From NCBI RefSeq assembly GCF_964213995.1, contig NW_027590213.1, positions 434,001-498,000 on the forward strand: a stretch of DNA of 64,000 nt, written 5' to 3'. The notes beneath the pieces were generated by a model that made no database searches, was not told the DNA's origin, and saw nothing but the letters and a program-made list of their open reading frames with translations. Shown piece after piece: positions 9,921 through 53,540 of this stretch. The DNA comes from Mustelus asterias. Lineage: Eukaryota. Position numbers and translations under genes: made by a program. How positions within the stretch are numbered: position 1 is the first letter of the stretch; every line of letters starts with the position of its first letter.

Positions 9921-10432
9921 TTACTCACAGATGGTAGAGACAGGAGGAAGTTTCAGTCTGTCTGAAGCTCAATCTGCATTAACACAAAGCCCGCGCTCTG
10001 ATTGGCTGGAGGACCAGCGTCGTTCCGGTCCTCCAACTCTTCCCATTGGCCAATACCTTAGAGTGAAGGTCAGGGGGTGGGATCTCCGCCGCGCGGACAC
10101 GGGAGCCCCGCCCCCACCCATTGTTCCCCCTCCCCCTGCACCTCCTCGAGCCAAGGTTTCCAGGCAACCGGCTGATGGCTCCGGCCAGAGCGATCGCCCC
10201 CTCCCCCTCCCCCCCCGGCACGGGATTGCGCATGTCCAAGGGAGAGGGGACGCTGCGCATGTGCGGGGGAACCCATCCCCTGACCGGCATACTGAGGTAT
10301 TGACCAATAGAAAGGAGTGGAGGACCGGACGTTCTCTGGTCCTCCAGCCAATCACATTTCCTCCATTGTGTGAATGCGGAAGTTGGCCCATGAGCTTCAG
10401 ACCAAAACCTCCTCTGCGCAACATCTGGGAGG
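9921..10432. promoter_or_regulatory. Bidirectional CpG-rich ZNF promoter module, copy 1, with first-exon ends on both sides
   Basis: CCAAT boxes, GC box, RFX X-box gtttccaggcaac (10156-10168), tgcgcatg motifs; minus-strand donor catct|gtgagt near 9925; caacatctgggagg near 10419. Confidence 0.7.
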
Positions 10433-20916: not shown

Positions 20917-23838
20917 CTAGACCAATCGTTTGTATCTCTCCATTCCCAGGCTGCTCATGTGACGATCCAGGTAAGTCTTAAACGATGTCAGCGTGCCTGC
21001 CTCCACCACCCTACTTGGCAGCGCATTCCAGGCCCCCACCACCCTCTGTGTAAAAAACGTCCCTCTGATGCCTGAGTTATACTTCGCCCCTCTCACCTTG
21101 AGCCCGTGACCCCTCGTGATCGTCACCTCCGACCTGGGAAAAAGCTTCCCACTGTTCACCCTATCTATACCCTTCATAATCTTGTATACCTCTATTAGAT
21201 CTCCCCTCATTCTCCGTCTTTCCAAGGAGAACAACCCCAGTCTACCCAATCTCTCCTCATAGCTAAGACCCTCCATACCAGGCAACATCCTGGTAAACCT
21301 TCTCTGCACTCTCTCTAACGCCTCCACGTCCTTCTGGTAGTGCGGCGACCAGAACTGGACGCAGTACTCCAAATGTGGCCTAACCAGCGTTCTATACAGC
21401 TGCATCATCAGACTCCAGCTTTTATACTCTATACCCCGTCCTATAAAGGCAAGCATACCATATGCCTTCTTCACCACCTTCTCCACCTGTGTTGCCACCT
21501 TCAAGGATTTGTGGACTTGCACACCTACGTCCCTCTGTGTTTCTATACTCCTGATGACTCTGCCATTTATTGTATAACTCCTCCCTACATTATTTCTTCC
21601 AAAATGCATCACTTCGCATTTATCCGGATTAAATTCCATCTGCCACCTCTCCACCCAATTTTCCAGCCTATCTATAGCCTGCTGTATTGCCCGACAATGC
21701 TCTTCACTATCCGCAATTCCAGCCATCTTCGTGTCATCCGCAAACTTGCTGATTACACCAGTTGCACCTTCTTCCAAATCATTTATATATATCACAAATA
21801 GCAGAGGTCCCAGTACAGAGCCCTGTGGAACACCACTGGTCACAGACCTCCAGCCGGAAAAAGACCCTTCGACCACTACCCTCTGTCTCCTATGGCCAAG
21901 CCAGTTCTCCACCCATCTAGCCACTTCTCCTTGTATCCCATGAGCCTTAACCTTCTTAACCAACCTGCCATGTGGGACTTTGTCAAATGCCTTACTGAAA
22001 TCCATATAGACGACATCCACGGCCCTTCCTTCATCAACCGTTTTTGTCACTTCCTCAAAAAACTCCACAAAATTTGTAAGGCACGACCTCCCTCTTACAA
22101 AACCATGCTGTCTGTCACTAATGAGATTGTTCCATTCTAAATGCACATACATCCTGTCTCTAAGAATCCTCTCCAACAACTTCCCTACCACGGACGTCAA
22201 GCTCACCGGCCTATAATTTCCTGGGTTATCCCTGCTACCCTTCTTAAACAACGGGACCACATTCGCTATCCTCCAATCCTCAGGGACCTCACCCGTGTCC
22301 AAAGAAGCGACAAAGATTTCCGTCAGAGGCCCAGCAATTTCACCTCTCGTCTCCCTGAGCAGTCGAGGATAGATGCCATCAGGCCCTGGGGCTTTGTCAG
22401 TTTTAATGTTCCTTAAAAAACCTAACACTTCTTCTCTTGTAATGGAGATTTTCTCTAACGGGTCAACACCTCCCTCCGAGACACTCCCGGTTAACACGCC
22501 CCTCTCCTTCGTGAATACCGATGCAAAGTATTCATTTAGGATCTCCCCTATTCCCTTGGGTTCTAAGCATAATTCCCCTCCTTTGTCCCTGAGAGGTCCG
22601 ATTTTCTCCCTGACAACTCTTTTGTTCCTAACGTATGAATAGAATGCCTTAGGATTCTCCTTAATCCTGCCTGCCAAGAACATCTCGTGACCTCTTTTTG
22701 CCCTTCTAACTCCCCGTTTGAGATCTTTCCTACTCTCTCTGTATTCCTCCAGAGCTCCATCTGTTTTCAGTTGCCTGGACTTAACGTACGCCTCCCTTTT
22801 CATTTTAATCAGATCCTCAATTTCCCTGGTTATCCACGGCTCTCGAATCCTACCTTTCCTATCTTTCCTTTTTACAGGCACATGCCTATCCTGCAGCCTT
22901 ATCAATAGTTCCTTAAAAGACTCCCACATGCCAGACGCGGACTTACCCTCGAACATCCTCTCCCAATCAACATCCACCAGTTCCTGCCTAATCCGGCTAT
23001 AGTCAGCCTTCCCCCAATTTAGCACCCTGCCCGTAGGACAGCACTCATCCTTGTCCATTACTATCTTAAAGTTAACAGAGTTGTGGTCACTATTTGCCAC
23101 ATGTTCCCCTACCGAAACTTTGACGACCTGACCGGGCTCATTTCCCAGAACTAGGTCCAGTATAGCCCCCTCTCTAGTCGGGCTATCTACATACTGTTCC
23201 AAAGAACCTTCCAGTACACATTTTACAAATTCCTCCCCGTCCGGTCCCCCAGCTCTAAGCACTTTCCAGTCTGTGCCAGGGAAATTAAAGTCCCCCACTA
23301 CGACAACCCTATGTTTTCTGCACCTATCCAGAATCTCCTGACATATCCTTTCCTCCACTTCCCGTGGGCTGTTGGGTGGTCTGTAGTACACCCCCAGCAT
23401 AGTGACTGCACCCTTCCTGTTTCTGAGTTCCACCCACAGCGACTCAGTACATGACCCCTCTAAGTTGTCTACCCTCTGCACCGCGGTAATATGCTCCTTA
23501 ACTAATATCGCTACTCCCCCACCTTTTTTAGCCCCTCCTCTGTCTCGCCTAAAACACTTATACCCCGGAATATTCAGCTGCCAGTCCTGTCCTTTTAACC
23601 AAGTTTCCGTCACCGCAACCACATCCAAATTCCGCACAAGCATTAAGGCCCTAAGTTTGTCTGTTTTACCCGTTACACTCCTCGCATTGAAGCAGATGCA
23701 CTCCAGAGCTCCAGGCCCAGTCAGGTCCTCCTCCTCCAGAGTGCTCCTCTTCTTAGCTAGCCTTGCCCTGGCCCCCAGCTCGACCCCAGCCTCAGTATTT
23801 ACTGACCTCCTGTTTTGTTCCCCACCCCCCTGCCACAC
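20917..23838 (-). CDS. CR1 ORF2: APE endonuclease plus reverse transcriptase, 973 codons, uninterrupted
   Basis: NARS, ETW, YRPP, GDFN, SDH endonuclease motifs; PGPDG, GVPQGSVLGP, FADD RT motifs. Confidence 0.95.
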   Translation of the reverse strand: MWQGGGEQNRRSVNTEAGVELGARARLAKKRSTLEEEDLTGPGALECICFNARSVTGKTDKLRALMLVRNLDVVAVTETWLKGQDWQLNIPGYKCFRRDRGGAKKGGGVAILVKEHITAVQRVDNLEGSCTESLWVELRNRKGAVTMLGVYYRPPNSPREVEERICQEILDRCRKHRVVVVGDFNFPGTDWKVLRAGGPDGEEFVKCVLEGSLEQYVDSPTREGAILDLVLGNEPGQVVKVSVGEHVANSDHNSVNFKIVMDKDECCPTGRVLNWGKADYSRIRQELVDVDWERMFEGKSASGMWESFKELLIRLQDRHVPVKRKDRKGRIREPWITREIEDLIKMKREAYVKSRQLKTDGALEEYRESRKDLKRGVRRAKRGHEMFLAGRIKENPKAFYSYVRNKRVVREKIGPLRDKGGELCLEPKGIGEILNEYFASVFTKERGVLTGSVSEGGVDPLEKISITREEVLGFLRNIKTDKAPGPDGIYPRLLRETRGEIAGPLTEIFVASLDTGEVPEDWRIANVVPLFKKGSRDNPGNYRPVSLTSVVGKLLERILRDRMYVHLEWNNLISDRQHGFVRGRSCLTNFVEFFEEVTKTVDEGRAVDVVYMDFSKAFDKVPHGRLVKKVKAHGIQGEVARWVENWLGHRRQRVVVEGSFSGWRSVTSGVPQGSVLGPLLFVIYINDLEEGATGVISKFADDTKMAGIADSEEHCRAIQQAIDRLENWVERWQMEFNPDKCEVMHFGRNNVGRSYTINGRVIRSIETQRDVGVQVHKSLKVATQVEKVVKKAYGMLAFIGRGIEYKSWSLMMQLYRTLVRPHLEYCVQFWSPHYQKDVEALERVQRRFTRMLPGMEGLSYEERLGRLGLFSLERRRMRGDLIEVYKIMKGIDRVNSGKLFPRSEVTITRGHGLKVRGAKYNSGIRGTFFTQRVVGAWNALPSRVVEAGTLTSFKTYLDRHMSSLGMERYKRLV

Positions 23839-24566
23839 TAGTTTAAATCCTGCCGAAACCCTCTAGCAAAACTCCCAGCCAGGATATTTGCTCCCTTCCA
23901 GTTAAGGTGTAACCCATCCTTTCTGTACAGTTGCCATCCTGACTTGAAGATTTCCCAGTTATCTATGAATTTAAAACCCTCCCTCTTGCACCAGTCCTTT
24001 AGCCACGCGTTCAACTGTAGAATCTCCCTGTTCCGAGCCTCACTTGCACTAGGCACCGGGAGCAGTCCAGATATTGCTACCCTGGAGGTCTTACTTTTTA
24101 GCCTAGCACCCAACTCCCTGAATTTCTCTCGTATGACCCCCCTGCTCTTCCTACCTACATCATTTCCCCCAATGTATACAATCACATCCGTTTGACTACC
24201 TTCCTTTTTAAATATGCTTCCTACCCTCTCGGAGACATCCAGTACCCCGGCACCAGGGAGGCAGACTACCATCCTGGATTCTCGTTCAGTCCCACAGAAG
24301 CGCCTGTCCGTGCCTCTAACCATTGTGTCCCCCACAACTATCGCTCTCCTAAACCCCTTCTTTCCTTTCTGGACCCCTGAGCCTGTCTCCGTGGAGGCGA
24401 TCTGGTCCTCGTGGCTTTCCCCTGGAGGGTCATCCCCCTCCACAGAATCCAAAACAATATACCTATTTTGGAGGGGGACAACCACAGGGGATCCCTCCAC
24501 AGACTGCTCACTCCCTTCCCTTCTCCCATCTGTTGCCCATTCCTTTCTTTTATGGGAGACAGCCAC
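23838..24566 (-). CDS. CR1 ORF1 C-terminal part, SGNH/GDSL esterase-like domain (truncated)
   Basis: VVGDTMVR, CLPGAG, IGGND, DGLHLN blocks; upstream part has an in-frame stop and is cut at 24680. Confidence 0.85.
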   Translation of the reverse strand: MAVSHKRKEWATDGRREGSEQSVEGSPVVVPLQNRYIVLDSVEGDDPPGESHEDQIASTETGSGVQKGKKGFRRAIVVGDTMVRGTDRRFCGTERESRMVVCLPGAGVLDVSERVGSIFKKEGSQTDVIVYIGGNDVGRKSRGVIREKFRELGARLKSKTSRVAISGLLPVPSASEARNREILQLNAWLKDWCKREGFKFIDNWEIFKSGWQLYRKDGLHLNWKGANILAGSFARGFRQDLN

Positions 24567-24981
24567 TGGGGTACTTTATGGCACATCACCCTTCTGACTA
24601 TTACCCCTCCTAACCGTGACCCACGTGTCTTCCTTCCGAGACCCTGGTGTCACTACCTGACTATAACTTTTATCTATTACCTGCTGCATTTTTCCAGTCC
24701 TTTCTGTATTTATTTCAGATCTACTTGTCGTGGGGGGAAAAACACTATTTACTATCCAGGATAAAATAAATGTCCTTCATCAGCTTTTGTGGATCATTTC
24801 AGTGGCAATGTGCTCTCCCAGGCTCAAAGAGCATTAGCCCCATTGGAAGCAAAGTCGTGCGATCGGCCAGTCCAGCAGAAAGAATCTCTCCTACCCTTCC
24901 ACTTCACCAACTATAAGAATAAACATGGTTCAGTCCTGGATGTGATTAATGGCAGGAATAACAGCAGAATCCAACCCGTCA

Positions 24982-25992
24982 TCACTTGTGAACTTGCTGG
25001 TGTGTCCGCCGGCTGGATGACTGAGTGAATCCCTTCCCACACACACAGCAAGTGAACGGTCTCTCCCCGGTGTGAACTCGCTGGTGTATCTGCAGGTGGG
25101 ATGATGTTCTAAATCTCTTTGAGCAGTGAGAGCAGCTGAACGGTCTCTCCTCAGTGTGAATGCGCTGGTGAATCATCAGTTCCCGAGAGCTTTTGAAACC
25201 ACTCCCACAGTCAGAACATTTAAAGGGTCTCTCATTGGTGTGAGTGAGATTGTGGTTCTGCAGGCTGGATGACTGAGTGAATCCCTTCCCACACACAGAG
25301 CAGGTGAATGGTCTCTCCCCAGTGTGAACGTGCTGGTGTATCCGCAGGTGGGATGACGTTCTAAATTTCTTTGCGCAGTGAGAGCAGCTGAACGGTCTCT
25401 CCCCAGTGTGAATGCGCTGGTGGATAATCAGTTCCCGAGAGCTTTTGAAACCACTCCCACAGTCAGAGCATTTAAAGGGTCTCTCATTGCTATGAGTGAC
25501 TTTGTGTTTTGACAGGTTGGATAACTGCGTAAATCCTTTCCCACACACCAAGCAGGTGAACGGTCTCTCCCCAGTGTGAATGCGCTGGTGAATCATTAGT
25601 TCCTGAGAGCTTTTGAAATCACGCCCACAGTCAGAGCATTTAAAGGGTTTCTCATTGCTGTGAGTGACTTTGTGTTTCGACAGGTTGGATAACTGCATAA
25701 ATCCTTTCCCACACACCAAGCAGGTGAATGGTCTCTCTCCAGTGTGAACACGCTGGTGTTTCTGCAGATCGGGTAAATGAGCGAATCCGTTCCCACACTC
25801 AAAGCAGATGAACGCTCTTTCTCCAGTATGAACCAGCTGATGTCGCTGCAGATGATATAACCGAGTGAATCTCTGCCCACACACAGAGCAGGTGAATGGC
25901 CTCTCCCCGGTGTGACTGCGTCGATGAATTTCCAGTTTACAGGGGGCTCTGTATCTCTTCCCACAGTCCCCACATTTCCACCGTTTCTCCAT
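24982..25992 (-). CDS. C2H2 zinc-finger protein, 12 fingers, 336 aa (ZNF-C)
   Basis: Intact ORF from GCACCATGG (MEKRWKC); internal duplicated finger blocks. Confidence 0.9.
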   Translation of the reverse strand: MEKRWKCGDCGKRYRAPCKLEIHRRSHTGERPFTCSVCGQRFTRLYHLQRHQLVHTGERAFICFECGNGFAHLPDLQKHQRVHTGERPFTCLVCGKGFMQLSNLSKHKVTHSNEKPFKCSDCGRDFKSSQELMIHQRIHTGERPFTCLVCGKGFTQLSNLSKHKVTHSNERPFKCSDCGSGFKSSRELIIHQRIHTGERPFSCSHCAKKFRTSSHLRIHQHVHTGERPFTCSVCGKGFTQSSSLQNHNLTHTNERPFKCSDCGSGFKSSRELMIHQRIHTEERPFSCSHCSKRFRTSSHLQIHQRVHTGERPFTCCVCGKGFTQSSSRRTHQQVHK

Positions 25993-26516
25993 GGTGCGGG
26001 CGTCCTTGTGACTCTCCAGGTTAAACAATCAGTTAAATCTCACACAGAACGTGGGTACAGTCTCTCCCGCTGTGAATGCTGCGATGTATTTTCAGGCTGT
26101 GTAACTGGTTAAAGCTCTTTCAACACTCAGTGCACTGGAACACTCTCACTCGGGTGTATCTGTGTCTTTCTGCTTTTCCAGTCACGTTGTTATTAAAGGC
26201 CTGCTGATGCAGACAGAACAGAGAAACATTTCTCCTTCTAGATTCAAAGGCCGATAATATTCAGGTCCGATGAATTGAGTGAGGGTGTCAGATGCTGGTG
26301 TGATGTTTGTTTCAAGATTTTGGTCTGTCAATCCTCACCTTCTCATATCCTGTAAACGAGTTTGAAAAATTCATCAGTGTCAGTGCAGGATAGAAATTCA
26401 GAACAGACAATTCTAGTTTCTATGGAACATTCTTTCCTCTCTCATTCCCCAAAAGCTGTAAATCTCCATCCCACACACTCTCCCTCCATTCTCACTCTGC
26501 TGTATCTAATATTCAC

Positions 26517-26582: not shown

Positions 26583-26805
26583 CTGGACACAGAGAGCTGA
26601 AAATCTCCATGCAGGCTGCCAGACAGATATTTGTCTAAATTACTGGGCTAAAAATGTGTGGAATATACAGACTGGATTCACTTCCTTTCCCTTCAGTTGC
26701 TGCAAGTTCCCAATTTCCCCCAGAATGTGAAAAGAAATGGAAAGGGGGAGAAAAGGAAGTGTTTCACTCACAGATGTTGGCCTCTTTTAAGGTAAGAGGG
26801 AGCTT

Positions 26806-26876
26806 TGTATTGGCTGGGAATCAAACCCGGGCCTCCCCCGTGACAGGTGAGAATTCTACCACTGAACCACCAATGC
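26806..26876 (-). pseudogene. tRNA-Gly(GCC)-derived pseudogene with anticodon changed to GTC
   Basis: Minus strand GCATTGGTGGTTCAGTGGTAGAATTCTCACCTGTCACGGGGGAGGCCCGGGTTTGATTCCCAGCCAATACA, 71 nt, vertebrate tRNA-Gly body with T-loop and stem substitutions. Confidence 0.85.
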
Positions 26877-27019
26877 ACAGGGCAGAGAAAACTGCTCAGT
26901 TCTTTCAACCAGTGCTTTCACATGCAAAGAAATGTTGATGATTTGCAGCAGCAAATTCAATGCTGCTAACACACACACAACAACAACACTGTTCGCCTCT
27001 TTGAAGGTACAACAACACT

Positions 27020-28345
27020 GTTGGTTTCTTTTTGTTTATTACAAATACGTTAATACAAAACAATTACAAATACACAAAGAACAAATGTGAAAAAATACAT
27101 TACCAATGGCTAACGCCATCCATTTATCAGTTACTACCTTCCATTTCGGAAGGGTTCATCGTCAATTACAGTTTTCCAGGGCATTGCCCTCAAAATACAC
27201 CTCCATTTACAAATCATAATCTACAAATCTACAAACATTAACACAACACTACAACTGTACACAACAAAAAAAATAAACACTGAAGCATAAGGGCACCGTC
27301 CCCTGGGTTTGTCCACCTGCCGGGGGATGCAACCCTCCAGTGGTACTCATATCCGGGGGTTACACCTTACGGATGTTCAGCCGGAGGGGGGAAATGGGGG
27401 AAACCACCCCGCCTACTCAATCCGGAATCCCTTCCGGAATTTCAGCCGGGGCGGTGGGAGAGTCTCTCCAGGGTACTCAGTTCGGGCCTGCCTTCCCAAT
27501 TTTTCTCCCGGAGAATAAAAATCCCTCTGGTGTTACTATGTCCGGGGCTTCACCACCCAGAACTTTCCCCAAGTGGATGTCACACCCCCCGGGGGTGACT
27601 TTATCCAGGGGGGGATGCCCCCCAGGCCACAAATAACGCAAGAAAATAGTCGGGGGCCGGAACAAACCACCAACTATCATAACATGAAAACCACATATTA
27701 CAATAACAAACAATCCATGAACAACCATACAATTGTGAAACATTTCGGAGGCATCGCCTTCCAGAGCTTCGCCCATCAACATTCCACCGTCCGAAGTCGA
27801 CAACGCTCAACTACAGTCCTCCAAAGTCCACCACTCCGGGCCAGATCTTCCAAAATCACACCCACTGGGGCTGCACCGTCTGGGGTCACACCTTCCGCGG
27901 CTGAACCTTCCGAAACCATAGTTCCCAAATGGCTCCTCCCTGGCTTGGGTCTTCCGAGATTGCATCTCCCTGGGCCACGCCTTTCAAGGCACAGGAATCC
28001 CAGCGAGAGCAGCATTCAACAAGCCCCAGCCGAAACAAAAAGTTCTTGCACAAGTCACGAACCCAAGCACTTGAAACAGAAACTTCACGCCGACCAAGGC
28101 GTTCCTCCCAGCGGCCACATTTCCAAAAGCTCACCGCAAGGCGCGCATTAAGCCCGCCTTGAACTCCTTATCCTCTGCCCGCCCCCTGCCTGGAGCACAC
28201 CATACTGGCCAACACGCAAAGCGAACGGCCAATATGGTGGACTGGCTGGACAATCCAATCTTTCCCACTCACAGATGTTGGCGACAGGAGGATGTTTGAG
28301 TCTGTCTGAAGCTCAATCTTCATTCAGAGAGAGAGCAGCCGCTTT
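27020..28345 (-). mobile_element. Unclassified non-autonomous retroposon copy A (~1.25 kb) headed by ~85 nt of ZNF exon-1 sequence
   Basis: Ends in aataaa plus A-rich tail on the minus strand; near-identical to 28979-30295; no RT motifs. Confidence 0.65.
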
Positions 28346-28978
28346 GTTTTTTTTTCTTCTTGTTTATTACAAATACGTTAATGCAAAACAGTTACAAATA
28401 CACAAAGAACAAATGTGAAAAAATACATTACCAATGGCTAACGCCATCCATTTATCAGTTACTACCTTCCATTTCGGAAGGGTTCATCGTCAATAACAGT
28501 TTTCCAGGGCATTGCCCTCAAAATACACCTCCATTTACAAATCATAATCTACAAATCTACAAACATTAACACAACACTACAACTGTACACAACAAAAAAA
28601 AAACACTGAAGCATAAGGGCACCGTCCCCTGGGTTTTTCCCCTACCGGGGGATGCAACCCTCCAGAGGTACTCAGGTCCGGGGGTTCCACCTGACGGATG
28701 TTCGACTGGAGGCGGGGGGACAGGAAAACCACCCCGAACCTACTCAATCCGGACTGCCTTCCGGATTTTCGGCTGGGGCGGTGGGAAAAGCTCTCCGGGA
28801 TACTCAATTCGGCCTGCCTTCCCAATTTTTCTCCCGGAGAACAAAACCCCCCCGGTGTTACCCCTCTGGGTGCCCCGGACACTTTCCCCAACTGGATGTC
28901 ACACCCCCCGGGGATCACTCTATCCAGGGGGGGGGGGGGGGGGATACCCCCTAGGCCACAAACAATGCAAAGATTTTC
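28346..28978 (-). mobile_element. 5'-truncated, diverged copy B of the same element
   Basis: Same 3' end and A tail as copy A; GC-rich part differs at many positions. Confidence 0.65.
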
Positions 28979-30295
28979 CGTTGGTTAGTACAAACACGAT
29001 ATTACAAAACAATTACAAATGAATAAAGAACAAATCCGAAAAATACATTACCGATGGCTAACACCATCCATTTATCAATTACTACCTTCCATTTCGGAAG
29101 GGTTCATCATCAATTACAGTTTTCCAGGGCATTGCCCTCAAAATACACCTCCATTTACAAATCATAATCTACAAATCTACAAACATTAACACAACACTAC
29201 AACTATACACAACAAAAAATAAACACTGAAGCATAAGGGCACCGTCCCCTGGGTTTGTCCACCTGCCGGGGGATGCAACCCTCCAGTGGTACTCATATCC
29301 GGGGGTTACACCTTACGGATGTTCAGCCGGAGGGGGGAAATGGGGAAACCACCCCGAACCTACTCAATCCGGAATTCCTTCCGGAATTTCAGCCGGGGCG
29401 GTGGGAGAGTCTCTCCAGGGTACTCAGTTCGGGCCTGCCTTCCCAATTTTTCTCCCGGAGAATAAAAATCCCTCTGGTGTTACTATGTCCGGGGCTTCAC
29501 CACCCAGAACTTTCCCCAAGTGGATGTCACACCCCCCGGGGGTGACTCCATCCAGGGGGGGATGCCCCCCAGGCCACAAATAACGCAAGAAAATAGACGG
29601 GGGCCGGAACAAACCACCAACTATCATAACAGAAAAACCACATATTACAATAACAAACAATCCATGAACAACCATACAATTGTGAAACATTTCGGAGGCA
29701 TCGCCTTCCAGAGCTTCGCCCATCAACATTCCACCGTCCGAAGTCGACAACGCTCAACTACAGTCCTCCAAAGTCCACCACTCCGGGCCAGAACTTCCAA
29801 AATCACACCCACTGGGGCTGCACCGTCTGGGGTCACACCTTCCGCGGCTGAACCTTCCGAAACCATAGTTCCCAAATGGCTCCTCCCTGGCTTGGGTCTT
29901 CCGAGATTGCATCTACCTGGGCCACACCTTTCAAGGCACAGGAATCCCAGCAAGAGCAGCATTCAACAAGCCCCAGCCGAAACAAAAAGTTCTTGCACAA
30001 GTCACGAACCCAAGCACTTGAAACAGAAACTTCACGCCGACCAAGGCGTTCCTCCCAGCGGCCACATTTCCAAAAGCTCACCGCAAGGCGCGCATTAAGC
30101 CCGCCTTGAACTCCTTATCCTCTGCCCGCCCCCTGCCTGGAGCACACTATACTGGCCAACACGCAAAGCGAACGGCCAATATGGTGGACTGGCTGGACAA
30201 TCCAATCTTTCCCACTCACAGATCTGGACGACAGGAGGAAGTTTGACTCTGTCTGAAGCTCAATCTTCATTCAAAGAGAGAGAGCAGCAGCTTTG
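28979..30295 (-). mobile_element. Copy C of the same element, with the ZNF exon-1 head
   Basis: Colinear with copy A, including tttcccactcacagat...gctttg. Confidence 0.65.
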
Positions 30296-30774
30296 CTGGG
30301 CCTTAATGAGCAGCTGAACAAGCTCATTGTCCACTTCCGCATTCAGACAATGGGGGGCTCTGATTGGCTGGAGGACCAGAGTCCTTCCGGTCCTCCAACT
30401 CTTCCCATTGGTCAATACCTCAACATGAGGGTCAGGGGGTGGGCACTCCCTCGCACATGCGCAGCTTCCCCACTCCCTTGGACATGCGCAGTCCCGGGCC
30501 GTGGGCAGGGGGCGATCAACGAGTTACTTCTCGCTCTGGCCGGAGCCATCAGTCGGTTGCCTGGAAACCTTGGCTCGAGGAGGTGGAGGGGGAGGGGAAC
30601 AATGGGTGGGGGCGGGGCTCCCGTGTCCGCGCGCCCGGGCCTGCGCACTGGAACCCCTGTACGTCATCGCGGAAGAGACTGATTCCTCCTGGCTGATTCA
30701 GGCAGGGCTGCATTGTGACGTCAAAATACGGATGTTGTCCAATGAGCTTCAGACCAAAACCTCCTCCTCTGGCA
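30296..30774. promoter_or_regulatory. Bidirectional ZNF promoter module, copy 2
   Basis: CCAAT, catgcgca x2, RFX gttgcctggaaac (30556-30568), GC box, CRE tgacgtca near 30716. Confidence 0.7.
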
Positions 30775-30777
30775 TGA

Positions 30778-30849
30778 GGGGGTGTAGCTCAGTGGTAGAG
30801 CATTTGATTGCAGATCAAGAGGTCCCCAGTTCAAATCTGGGCGCTCCCC
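30778..30849 (+). tRNA. tRNA-Cys(GCA) copy, probably a retroposed pseudogene
   Basis: GGGGGTGTAGCTCAGTGGTAGAGCATTTGATTGCAGATCAAGAGGTCCCCAGTTCAAATCTGGGCGCTCCCC folds as a cloverleaf with intact A/B boxes; discriminator reads C rather than U; no TTTT terminator follows. Confidence 0.85.
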
Positions 30850-30942
30850 TATCTAATCTTCATCTTAGCAAGAAAGAATCAAAGTCATAAAACCCACCCT
30901 TACACAGTACAGTGTCTGTAACTGCAGCAATGAGTAATAATA

Positions 30943-32802
30943 GGACCTGGCTGACCTGCGGAGGGTGCGAGAATGCCAGGCGGTGTACTCCGCCGCGTCC
31001 TCCGCCAGGATCAACTGGGCCAAGTGCTCCGGACTCCTTGTCGGTCCTTGGGAGACGGACCCCCTTCCGGAGGAGCTCAGGCCTTTCACCTGGAGCAGGA
31101 CCAACCTCCTCTACTTGGGGGCCCATCTCTGCCCAGCCGAGGAATCCTGGCCGGCGAACTGGCGGGAGCTGGAGGCCAAAGTCTCCGCCCGCCTGAGTCC
31201 TACGGGGCGCGAGTTCGCGTCATAAACCAGCTGGTCGCCTCCATGCTGTGGTACCGGCTGGTCCCTTTGACCCCTCCCCCTGGCTTTGTCGCCGATATCC
31301 AGAGAACCCTCCTGCGGTTCTTCTGGGACAATCGACTGCACTGGGTCCCTGCTGCGGTTCTGCATCTCCCGCTTGAGGAGGGCGGACAAGGTCTGGTGTG
31401 GCTCCGCACTCAGATAGCGGCCTTCCGCCTCCAGGCCCTGCAGAGGTACCTTTACGTTGAGCCCCCTCCACAATGGTGTGCCATGGCGACGTATTTCTTC
31501 CGCCAGAGGCACGGCCTCAATTATGACGTGCAGCTCCTGCATATCGAACTGGGGCGTGCTTCGACCACCCTGCAGGAGTTGCCCGTCTTTTACCAGGACC
31601 TCCTCACTGTCTGGAACAAGGTCGCCTCGCGACGCAGCTCTCCCCCGTCAGGAATCCGCTCCTCCAGCCATATAACTTCAGGTGGCTGACGGAGAGGAGG
31701 GCTGCGGACGCTGGGGTGACCAGAATCGGGGACGTGCTCGATGGCGGAGGAGCGGGCTGGATGAGTCCCCGTGTGCTGGCTGAGCGCGCGGGGACGTCCG
31801 TCCGGCACGCGGCCAAAGCCATCCTAGACCTTAGGACGGTCGTGCTCGGCCCCGAAACTGCACGCAAACCCGAGGCAGCGCAGGCGTGCGGTGGGATCCC
31901 GCCCGAGCGTTCCCCTGTTCGGGCGGAATTCCACATTGGCCCAAAGCCTCAGCCCCCCTCCCCCCCTGGGTGAGGTGCCCCACAGCCTGAGCCGCCTCGC
32001 GGAAATGTCCTCCGTGCCTTTTTCTACCGCGCGGAGGCGTTTCCTGTGCGGGCTGCTGCTGCACACCCTCCACTACTGCCTCCTCGCCTGTCGCCCGGAT
32101 ACACCTTGGCGGGCCTTGTTGCCGCCGGGCGGCGGAGGTCCCCGCTGGAGGTCCCTCTGCGGAGGGATCTCCCCCAATTACGTCGGGGACCTGGGGTGGA
32201 GGGTGATGCATGCAGCAGTTCCGCACAACCGTAGGATTCACTGGTTCACGGGCTCCGAAGACTGCCCTTTCTGTGGCCTTGTGGAGTCCGTGGACCATGT
32301 CTATGTTGAGTGTCTTAGGCTGCACTCCCTTTATGTTTTCCTGAAGAACCTTTTGTTGATGTTTTGTCTGCACTTCAGTCCCACGCTCCTGATCTACGGA
32401 CACCCGGTGCGGAGAGGGGAGGGTCGGGATGGCGACCTCCTCGTGAACCTGCTCCTGGGCCTGCCGAAACGCGCCATTTACCGGTCCAGGCAGCGGGCGA
32501 TCGAGGGGGCCGTCCATCCTGACTGTCTTCCCCTCTACCGCGGCTACGTTCGCGGCCAGGTGTCCCTGGAGAGGGAGCATGCGGTGTCCACGGGCGCGGT
32601 TGACACCTTCCGTGCCCGCTGGGCACCGCAGGGGTTGGGGTGCATTATTGACCCTAATAATCACATTTTAATTTGATGTTTTTAAGTTTCCTTTGTACTT
32701 TGATTTCTGTTCGGGCTGTTCCCCCTCCTTTTTGGGGAGCTGCCCCTTTTACTTTGTCCTGATTTAATCTGAGTTTGTTTATTTGGTTTGACCTAAAAAG
32801 AG
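30943..32802 (+). mobile_element. Tx1-group (L1 clade) LINE, 5'-truncated just after the RT active site, frameshifted with internal deletions
   Basis: SARINWAKC, NQLVASMLWY, LPLEEGGQGL, CPFCGLVESVDHVYVEC zinc knuckle, T-rich 3' UTR ending gacctaaaaagag. Confidence 0.9.
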
Positions 32803-33287
32803 GGCAACATCTGGGAGGAAAACACTTTCTTCCCTCCACCCCCCCCCCCCCCCCCCTTTCCATTTTTTTTCTCATTCTGGGGGAAATTGGGGACTTGCAG
32901 CAACTGATGGGAAAGGAAGTGAATCCAGGGAGGCTGCAGACTCTGGAAAGGTTACAGATGAAGACCGGATTCAGGAACAGGACTAGGCCCAGGTATATTT
33001 TTGTTTCTCTCTCAAAGACATTGACATCTTTTAGTTCCCTCAGTTTATCTGGCTAATAGGGGAGCCTCTTACCCAATGTTCACAATTCAGTTTTCCCAGA
33101 AGAGGGCTAACATTTAAATGAACTGTAAATTTGTATGGGAGAGAGATATGTTATTTATGATCCCATATTTTTTGTCTTGAAATATACAGCAGTGTGGCTG
33201 CTTTATCAATTTCCAGTGATGCAGAGATTACAACATAGAAGGAAATGCATTTGGCAACTTAAATCCATGCTAACTCTCTGTGGTAGC

Positions 33288-35360: not shown

Positions 35361-35667
35361 GTGACATTCAATCCCTTCCCTGCAGGACATCAGTGAATCA
35401 CTTGGGTTTTTATGACACTCCAGAATTTTCATGGTCACTTTTTCCTAGTGCCAGCCCCAGAAATTACCAGATTCATTCAGCTCAATTTCACAACCTGCCT
35501 TTGTGTTTTTGTGGGTTCTCTCTCACTTTTTTTTTCTTTTAAATTCAGTGTCACAGAGTTTTAGAAGCGGAGGATTTGCAGTCAGGAATCTTCGAACAAA
35601 CATCACATCTGGATCTGACGGAGCTGCCCAGTTAACGGTAACTTGATTATCATTCGGATTTTAAACA

Positions 35668-36210
35668 TTGAAGGAAAAAGCATTGTTCACAGTAGATGAA
35701 ACTGTTCTCTGCGTGGACGAGGCTTCAGTTGATCATCTGGCCTCAGGAGCTACAAATATAAACATCCTGGGGAGGAACCATGGAAGAGTGAGGACAGTGA
35801 TGAGGGATTCAGTTACCCGTCTGAGCTGGAAGCTCATCGTGCACCGGGGAGAGGCCGTTCACCGGCTCTGTGTATTGGACTGATTTCACTCCATCAGCCA
35901 ACCTGTTGGCTCACTGACATATTCACACTGGGGGGAGATTGTTCAAACGCTTCAGAGATGGAAAGGGATTCATTCAGTCATCCCACCATATGACACACAA
36001 ACGTATTCACACTTGAGTGATTTTGTTAATTGCCCAGACTACGAGAAGAGCTGTAAAAGTTCCAGGGAAGTGATATCCTATCAACTTGTCCACACTGACG
36101 AGAGACCGTTCAGGTGCTCTCACTTTGGGACTGAGTTCAGGCGATTATCTCACCTCACAGTGCACCAGCAAATTCACACTGGGGAGAGGTTATTCCTCTG
36201 CTCTGACTCA
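35668..36210 (+). pseudogene. C2H2 ZNF pseudogene (ZNF-D)
   Basis: Finger remnants ([32 protein letters not shown]) with stops and frameshifts; upstream region paralogous to that of 41158-42022. Confidence 0.85.
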
Positions 36211-36456
36211 GTTGAAAAAAATTACAAGTAAATCACTATTTGCTATAGACCAAAGAAAGATACTCTATTAGAAGAGTAAGGGTCACAAGGTAAAACAAGC
36301 CAAGTTCCAGAATATTAAACATCCAGTCCAGTTACAGAGATTATAAACATCAACAGAAACAAACCCAAACTATCAGAATGAAGAGAGTTCAGTCTTGGGT
36401 GTCATTAACAACAGCAGAATCCAATCCCAGTAATCACTGCTGAACTCGCCGGTGTG

Positions 36457-43394: not shown

Positions 43395-44110
43395 TCCTCC
43401 CAGATGTTGTCCAGAAGCGGGAGTTTCACTCTGAACCTCGTTGGCCAACTTCCGTATTGTGACGTCACAATGGAATCTAGCCTGAAATAGCCAATAGGAA
43501 TAAGTCTGTACCGATGTGACGTCATGGAGTTCCAGTGCGCAGGCCCGGGCGCGCAGACATGGGAGCCCCTCCCATTGATTCCCCCGCCCCCTGCCATCTC
43601 CTCGAGCCAAGGTTTCCCGGCAACCGGCTGGCGGCTCCGGCCAGAGCGAGAAGCCGCTCGGTGATCTCCCCCTCCCCCCTCTCTCTCCGGCTGCTGCTCC
43701 AAAAAGAGATCGAGAGCGACCGCTGGCGGCAGCCGCACTGCGCCTGCTCCGGACAGCTCGGCTCAGCAGCGCTCTCTGCGCCTGCTCCGGACAACTCGGC
43801 TCAGCAGCGCTCTCTGCGCCTGCGTGCTGGGCTGCCAGCTGAGGGAGTGGGGGAGGGGACTTTGCAAAATCTCTTCCCATCATTTTCTTCCCAGTCCCGC
43901 AGTTTGATTTGAAACAGAACAGCTTCTGTTTGTAGCTTCACCACAGACTCAAACTTCACCACAGACTCAAACTTCACCACAGACTCAAACTTCACACACA
44001 GACTCAAACTTCACACACAGACTCAAACTTCACCACAGACTCAAACTTCACACACAGACTCCAACTTCACACACAGACTCAAACTTCATCCTCTGGCCAA
44101 CATCTGTGAG
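43395..44110. promoter_or_regulatory. Bidirectional ZNF promoter module, copy 3, with unoccupied first-exon ends
   Basis: Two tgacgtca, RFX gtttcccggcaac (43612-43624), CCAAT; ggacaacatctgggagg (minus, ~43400) and ggccaacatct|gtgagg (~44096-44110). Confidence 0.7.
43936..44088 (+). repeat. 18-19 bp minisatellite (cacagactcaaacttcac) x8
   Basis: Directly visible tandem units. Confidence 0.95.
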
Positions 44111-52456: not shown

Positions 52457-52900
52457 GGTGCAGGTGTCCTTACCTCTCTCTTGGGTGGACAATTAGTTGA
52501 AACTTCGTCTACACACAGAACAAGATTACAGTCTCTACCCGCTGTGAATGGTGTGATATTTATTCAGACTGTGTAACTGGTTAAAGCTCTTTAGTCAGTG
52601 CATTGGGACACTCTCACTCAAGTGTGGCAGTGTGTCGATGCTTTTTCACTCACACTGACATTTCAAATCTTTTCAAATCGACAGACTGGACAATCATTTC
52701 TCCTTCTGGATTCAAAGTCCAATGATATTGAGGTCCCAAGGAATATGACTCTGTCAGATCTAGACGTGATGTTTGAGATGTCGGCCTGTGATTCCTCTTT
52801 CAATATCCTGTAAAATGAGTTTCCAAAAGTCATCAGTGTCAGTACAGGATAGAAATTCAGAACAGACAATTTCTATGGAACATTCTTTCCTCTCTCATTC

Positions 52901-53230
52901 AGAGGGTGGGTTCTCCCCCGCACATGCACAGCTTCCCCTCTCCCTCGCACATTTTGCAGTCCCGGGCTGGGGGAGGGGGAGATCACCAAGCGGCTTCTCG
53001 CTCTGGCCGGAGCCGTCAGCCGGTTGCCTGGAAACCTTGGCTCGATGTGGTGCAGGGGGAGGGGAACAATGGGTGGGGGCGGGGCTCCCGGGTCCGCGCG
53101 CCCGGGCCTGCTCACTGGAACCCGGAGACGTCACCGCGGAGCAGAGTGATTCCTATTGACTGATTCAGGCAGGGCTCTATCGTGGCATCACAATGCGGAA
53201 GTTGTCCAATGAGCTTCAGAGTGAAACTTT
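52901..53230. promoter_or_regulatory. ZNF promoter module, copy 4, truncated on the left
   Basis: RFX gttgcctggaaac (53023-53035), GC box; colinear with 30435-30755. Confidence 0.7.
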
Positions 53231-53242
53231 GCTCTCCGATCA

Positions 53243-53540
53243 CATTCCATTGTGATGTCACACCCTCACCCAGTCCATTGTGATGTCACACTCTCACCCA
53301 TTCCATTGTGACGTCACACTCTCACCCATTCCATTGTGACGTCACACCCTCACCCAGTCCATTGTGACGTCACACTCTCACCCATTCCATTGTGACGTCA
53401 CACCCTCACCCATTCCATTGTGACGTCACACCCTCACCCATTCCATTGTGACGTCACGCTCTCACCCATTCCATTGTGACCTCACACCCTCACCCATTCC
53501 ATTGTGACGTCACACTCTCACCCATTCCATTGTGACGTCA
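53243..53540 (+). repeat. 28-bp minisatellite (cattccattgtgacgtcacaccctcacc), 10 full units plus 1 partial
   Basis: Exact 28-bp period; 8 perfect TGACGTCA. Confidence 0.95.

Follow-up and report, generated by a model that had tools for sequence, protein, structure and literature searches.

The 64,000-nucleotide stretch of the Mustelus asterias genome analysed here (assembly GCF_964213995.1, contig NW_027590213.1, positions 434,001 to 498,000; hereafter the window) carries two head-to-head genes, each with a zinc-finger coding exon. Near the putative start of both genes, a long interspersed nuclear element (LINE) of the Tx1 group, here called family A, has left its 3´ terminus. The coding exon of the minus-strand gene (24982..26028, minus strand) is an open frame with 12 C2H2 fingers; that of the plus-strand gene (35560..36220, plus strand) is broken by stops and frameshifts. 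Between the insertions lies a segment (30203..30774) that probably comprises the upstream part of the minus exon 1, a bidirectional promoter and the upstream part of the plus exon 1, judging from its motifs, its CpG content and its homology to 9923-10414, 43411-43677 and 52899-53220. In both genes the insertion site is followed by a conserved GTGAGT or a later GT, and a conserved TTTACAG-type acceptor precedes the coding exon. We regard the insertion site as part of a putative exon 1 of zinc-finger (ZNF) genes, which form a very large, multicopy family in this genome.

On the plus strand, exon 1 is followed by a pre-tRNA-Cys piece (30775..30942: a 3-base leader, the gene at 30778-30849 and a 93-base trailer, with a tRNA-Cys cluster on contig C11 as source), then by a 5´-truncated family A copy of 1.86 kb (30943..32803; broken 3´ part of open reading frame 2 (ORF2), zf-RVT domain and 3´ untranslated region (UTR)) and by a target site of a second exon-1 type (GCAACATCTGGGAGG, 32804..32818). 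The tRNA piece and the LINE are joined through 4 shared bases. On the minus strand, exon 1 is followed by a non-coding passenger element, B, in a 1.85-kb form with an internal duplication (28353..30202), an extra ZNF exon 1 copy (28256..28346) separating it from another B copy of the 1.23-kb form (27025..28255), a 13-base family A terminus with duplicated target (26996..27008), a piece of a tRNA-Gly tandem array (26794..26995; spacer plus a tRNA gene at 26805-26877 with mutated anticodon) joined to a further 13-base terminus of family A (26781..26793), and the target site (26766..26780), that is, the end of the putative non-coding exon 1 (CCAACATCT) with GTGAGT as predicted splice donor. The tRNA-Gly unit represents one old insertion amplified together with its gene; B and the extra terminus were inserted into this unit later.

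A first-pass annotation of the window had proposed that two opposite-strand insertions flank the bidirectional promoter and end in the same terminus. Both junctions are indeed present. Their sites were given correctly and their exact positions one base off; they lie at 26781/26780 on the minus strand and 32803/32804 on the plus strand, the element ending in ...AAAAGAGG, because the target-site duplications of other copies start one base past the junction first noted. The junction motif AAAGAGGSCAACATCTG has 2 matches within the window, against 0.05 expected. A third terminus and three empty paralogous sites had also been reported, and both reports are borne out: the terminus at 26996-27008 is a 13-base insert separating two near-copies of a 16-base stretch, and the empty sites lie at 10418..10427 (plus strand), 43401..43410 (minus strand) and 44097..44106 (plus strand). 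The two tRNA heads and the non-coding passenger at the same site are additions to that description. Since the window's two insertions have different heads and terminus variants and lie in different types of exon 1, they do not derive from one segmental duplication, an origin that the annotation had considered. Duplicates of each do exist. The plus insertion shares its flank with 2 other loci, which are segmental duplicates, and 1 further locus holds the tRNA-Cys/Tx1 chimera in tandem; the minus tRNA-Gly unit is common to at least 14 other segmental duplicates (at least 15 paralogs in all).

No more than 4 loci carry the tRNA-Cys/Tx1 chimera, and 3 of these are segmental duplicates, so that a tRNA-headed short interspersed element, which should have many independent copies from a master, was rejected as its explanation. 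Its 5´ breakpoint inside ORF2 (30943 in the window) is identical in an otherwise unrelated insertion, L113; a splice origin of this breakpoint found no support, there being no AG acceptor ahead of it. As main target of the family, tRNA arrays are unlikely: no family A sequence adjoins the 11 tRNA-Cys source loci to which this result is limited.

By its Pfam layout and pairwise identity, family A is a Tx1L-like LINE of the Tx1 group, in agreement with the first identification. ORF2 encodes an APE endonuclease, a reverse transcriptase and a C-terminal zinc finger (zf-RVT; Pfam, pieces of L104 and L111). It is 54% identical to Xenopus laevis Tx1L (YTX2_XENLA) over 800 residues, with 48% identity in the endonuclease; the highest-identity match in the same protein search, 70%, was a stingray record. 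An open ORF2 of 1,297 residues is present in 8 of the 12 long copies checked. ORF1 contains a CCHC zinc knuckle, the zf-CCHC match having an E value of about 0.001, just under the Pfam cut-off (L104, L108). Copies display 5´ truncation and target-site duplication; 18 dispersed copies have a duplication, mostly of 11-16 bases, and many others have no detectable one. Pieces which we take to be 5´ parts of U2 small nuclear RNA adjoin Tx1-like ends in L016 and in L019, where an occupied ZNF site lies just upstream of the piece.

We then turn to the distribution of family A ends over the genome. The exact 3´ end TTGACCTWAAAAGAGG occurs 1,698 times, against 11 occurrences of a control. Of these ends, 135 abut the exon-1 end motif VCAACATCTG, and among the 100 matches listed all are of ZNF type; 96 more sit, in sense orientation, just before the exon-1 motif TTGAGCTTCA, about 50 bp upstream of the first site, a count that includes tandem heads. 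From the density of VCAA, chance would place 0.03 ends at 2,000 sites. The flanks of family A copies are thus enriched for ZNF exon 1 and not random. That ZNF exon 1 is the target, as first proposed, is correct in the sense of repeated independent insertion and incorrect in the sense of strict specificity: exon-1 sequence accounts for at least 231 of the 1,698 ends (14%), most of the others being dispersed. Only 1 ZNF site is found among the first 30 ends on contig C1, and 5 among the best 40 matches to the window's tail. Because about 86% of ends lie elsewhere, we speak of preference, not of strict specificity, and family A cannot be placed in the stringent site-specific class (Tx1L, Keno, R2 type), where most copies occupy one target. 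For the youngest tail variant, the proportion at the target is apparently above half among the matches listed (100 of 202).

Seen from the side of the target, VCAACATCTG has 37,992 copies genome-wide, and a stricter pattern recognizes 1,314 ZNF-type sites. A hand count of the first 100 of these, a sample leaning to the C12 and C23 clusters, gave 28 sites occupied by family A and 3 by B, 63 empty ones and 6 outside ZNF genes, i.e. 31 of 94 occupied. Outside ZNF genes VCAACATCTG is essentially unused, all listed occupied copies being of ZNF type, and dispersed copies share only 3-4 bases of target. Neither a 7-base nick motif such as G[CG][CG]AACA, to which the targeting had originally been ascribed, nor a 10-base one can therefore be the determinant. 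The antisense pattern gave 1 match, against 96 in sense; since that match comes from a small inverted segment of an insertion that itself lies in sense, antisense use of the site was rejected. At G000:C10:47537031 a terminus is followed by 14 bases that read as antisense exon-1 sequence, possibly an antisense insertion. On this evidence we are confident that the targeting is real: this Tx1L-like family has a strong but partial preference for ZNF first exons.

The insertions are also numerous in origin. By breakpoint and flank, a sample of 78 from the ZNF junction loci found falls into 45 clusters, with some false merges and splits; 33 of the 78 collapse, and one duplication is therefore insufficient to account for them. 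Insert lengths at ZNF sites range from 13 bases to full length, young copies that are 99% identical sit in different genes, and eight copies with a tRNA-Val head are 83-95% alike in their last 500 bases and 47-79% alike upstream. Passenger B occupies ZNF exon-1 sites at nine loci, with differing flanks and, in most of them, a 15-base duplication. These data support repeated and independent insertion at ZNF exon 1.

Sequences captured at the 5´ ends of the elements hint at how this comes about. Heads form a nested series, from a target remnant alone, through tRNA-Val plus remnant, to a head in which captured exon 1 precedes a decayed tRNA-Val and the remnant, and it is captured exon 1 that heads the youngest subfamily. 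All exact matches to one 5´-UTR motif (7/7) stand in ZNF exon-1 context. Among the best 40 of 472 matches to the endonuclease region, which are biased toward the query's subfamily, 39 lie in ZNF clusters or small contigs and 1 on C21. GTGAGT or GTGAAT is kept in 18 of 22 tRNA-bearing heads, where the bases preceding it have decayed; its retention may reflect selection for a splice donor. B in turn brings the exon-1 end to non-ZNF sites (L218), and its copies at the tRNA-Gly site show TCTGTGAGT at their left side, a sequence missing from the right flank. Captured exon-1 and tRNA heads on full-length copies suggest co-transcription from ZNF promoters.

Some further arrangements of these elements were noted. 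A B-derived subfamily (L206, L207, L218, L219) ends on TCCYTGATTGAG and is arranged in tandem arrays, its head consisting of about 165 bases of CCAAT/TATA-like target and the ZNF exon-1 end. A more distant relative, L299 (89%), has a different flank at its end, ATACC, along with a duplication. A tandem array with a unit of about 132 bases, composed of termini followed by TCTCTGAGT, is located at G000:C89:2431510-2433797, and the dispersed copies L009, L024 and L034 lie within CpG-rich, promoter-like flanks of another repeated sequence.

How could a LINE find the first exons of one gene family? We consider it modestly probable that family A and passenger B target ZNF exon 1 through co-transcription from the host promoter combined with pairing between RNA and target over a loose nick. 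Source copies would be transcribed from the ZNF host promoter into RNA that has exon-1 sequence at the 5´ terminus and, at the 3´ terminus, a few bases of the target. The APE domain would nick loosely, and the exon-1 and target bases of the RNA would pair with the nicked site, favouring priming and joining at the same exon. Copies landing in exon 1 would retain the promoter and might serve as the next sources, and the tRNA heads of the window would be likely template switches onto pre-tRNA. Co-transcription agrees with the insertion of elements in sense orientation at a few fixed exon-1 positions.

Target bases next to dispersed copies are informative in this respect. Among distinct dispersed ends, gathered by similarity and not at random, CTTAAAA tails are followed by CCA in 14 of 14 cases, TTTATTTGG tails by GCA in 42 of 53, duplicated-GGTTT tails by ACA in 11 of 18 and TTTACTTGG tails by TCT in 9 of 14. 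Each of the four motifs matches a used position in exon 1. Its first base belongs to target DNA, because both repeats of the duplication include it in 17 of the 18 cases. The endonucleases of the subfamilies differ at 0-31 of 260 residues.

Several observations weigh against the co-transcription account. Exon 1, the promoter and co-transcription itself are all predictions from sequence. Most ends, about six in seven by the figure given above, are away from exon-1 motifs, and part of the 231 count is due to segmental duplication and tandem heads. At dispersed sites the match ends sharply after 3-4 bases, CCAA sites continuing with C in 11 of 46 cases (hand count); such a stop fits a motif read by protein better than graded pairing. 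Finally, the TCT copies that could be placed cleanly have G at endonuclease residue 15, where CCA, GCA and ACA copies have E; L292, L296 and L298 are exceptions. Because the residue changes together with the move to TCT, the motif switch may have its cause in the protein. By alignment, residue 15 lies outside the hairpin loop studied in PMC1950540.

The last two points lead to the main alternative, a protein-directed one, in which the APE domain reads the short motif, a promoter-bound factor at ZNF genes tethers ORF1p or ORF2p, and captured heads are a by-product. It gains from the sequence-specificity of the Tx1L endonuclease in vitro (PMC1950540) and from the use of several positions inside about 60 bases of one exon. 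Tethering alone, however, does not predict sense-only insertion, the tethering factor is hypothetical, and there are exceptions among both E15 and G15 copies; we judge this explanation possible but rather improbable. Less likely still is a passive hotspot, where open germline promoter chromatin and a short motif would attract insertions, redundancy would preserve them and segmental duplication would multiply them. The dispersed majority of copies, the common duplicates (33/78 loci collapsing) and the tendency of occupied genes to be broken would all follow from it, but it has to face a thousands-fold excess over the expectation from VCAA density, base-precise sites in a single orientation and the fact that two element families use one and the same site. 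A common descent of all junctions, from just one or two insertion events later copied by segmental duplication or gene conversion, agrees with the tRNA-Gly paralogs (at least 15) and the plus copy (3) but is most improbable, being already contradicted by the 45 clusters and by flanks far more diverged than the elements, and opposed as well by distinct 5´ breakpoints with their own target duplications and by the young copies in different genes.

Extending the co-transcription account, we tentatively picture a vertebrate LINE lineage with an RNA-inherited target, although we hold this to be rather doubtful. Each subfamily would re-aim at the exon-1 position of its source copy by means of read-through and the captured exon as guide, keeping the splice donor in its head, and would parasitise promoters of a gene family that possibly polices transposons. 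Since there are intact young copies and near-identical endonucleases go with different sites, control of APE LINE landing by protein or by RNA flank becomes testable here.

As to the host genes, among 10 occupied sites 2 have a downstream frame with at least 7 fingers within 7 kb, as do 5 among 10 empty ones (p=0.35). The idea that exon 1 serves as a safe haven, raised in the first-pass annotation alongside disruption of genes that may repress transposons, is thus unsupported; this small test leans away from it, not significantly. Two other features of the window may be mentioned: long LINE-like frames of another family (20917-24575, minus strand; 981 and 245 residues) and, within a ZNF promoter (53309-53540), tandem repeats of a 28-base unit with TGACGTCA in it. 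With the preference described here, the known landing sites of Tx1-type elements would come to include a protein-coding gene family, and the insertions may act as a source of mutation in the birth and death of ZNF genes. A Tx1 element with an RNA polymerase II-transcribed, protein-coding gene family as target was not found in literature searches, Repbase and most subscription papers being outside their scope.

Among known systems, Dewa is a Tx1-group LINE targeting tRNA arrays. There, tRNA arrays are the target, whereas here tRNA pieces are heads, and the three tRNA source regions viewed did not emerge as targets. SVA-MAST2 is not known to return to MAST2. It uses a captured host exon and promoter (PMC4494074), as is likely here, but is not a LINE aimed base-precisely at one gene family. 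Targets of such elements are listed in PMC6719617, PMC1950540 and PMC8869645. By the first of these, Tf1, P, Mutator and mPing prefer gene starts, but they are not LINEs aimed base-precisely at one gene family. R2 and R1 are cotranscribed with their target, flanking RNA aiding integration (as cited in PMC4494074), and would resemble family A if the host promoter drives the element and RNA from the flank helps it integrate; they differ in their ribosomal DNA target, in belonging to other clades and in that cotranscription was established by experiment, whereas here it is inferred. According to the same paper, Tx1 elements with a known target preference settle in RNA genes, microsatellites or other transposons; Keno, Kibi and Koshi share with family A the Tx1 group and multicopy targets, theirs being U2 genes or microsatellites. 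Tx1L of X. laevis, whose target is Tx1D, is alike in ORF2 identity, in the APE, reverse transcriptase and zinc finger layout and in its multicopy target; by the description in PMC1950540 it is stringent, whereas here most copies are dispersed and the target is the first exon of a protein-coding family. The closest behaviour is that of crocodilian Tx1-Mar/SINEU (PMC4494074). These elements share with family A a preference that is only partial (13-90% of SINEU copies lie at the target), a pair of dissimilar sites within one target, small-RNA heads, passengers, tandem insertion and a proposed flank-driven transcription. Their target, however, is the DNA transposon Mariner-N4_AMi and their heads are U1/U2, whereas the heads found here are tRNA and host exon 1.

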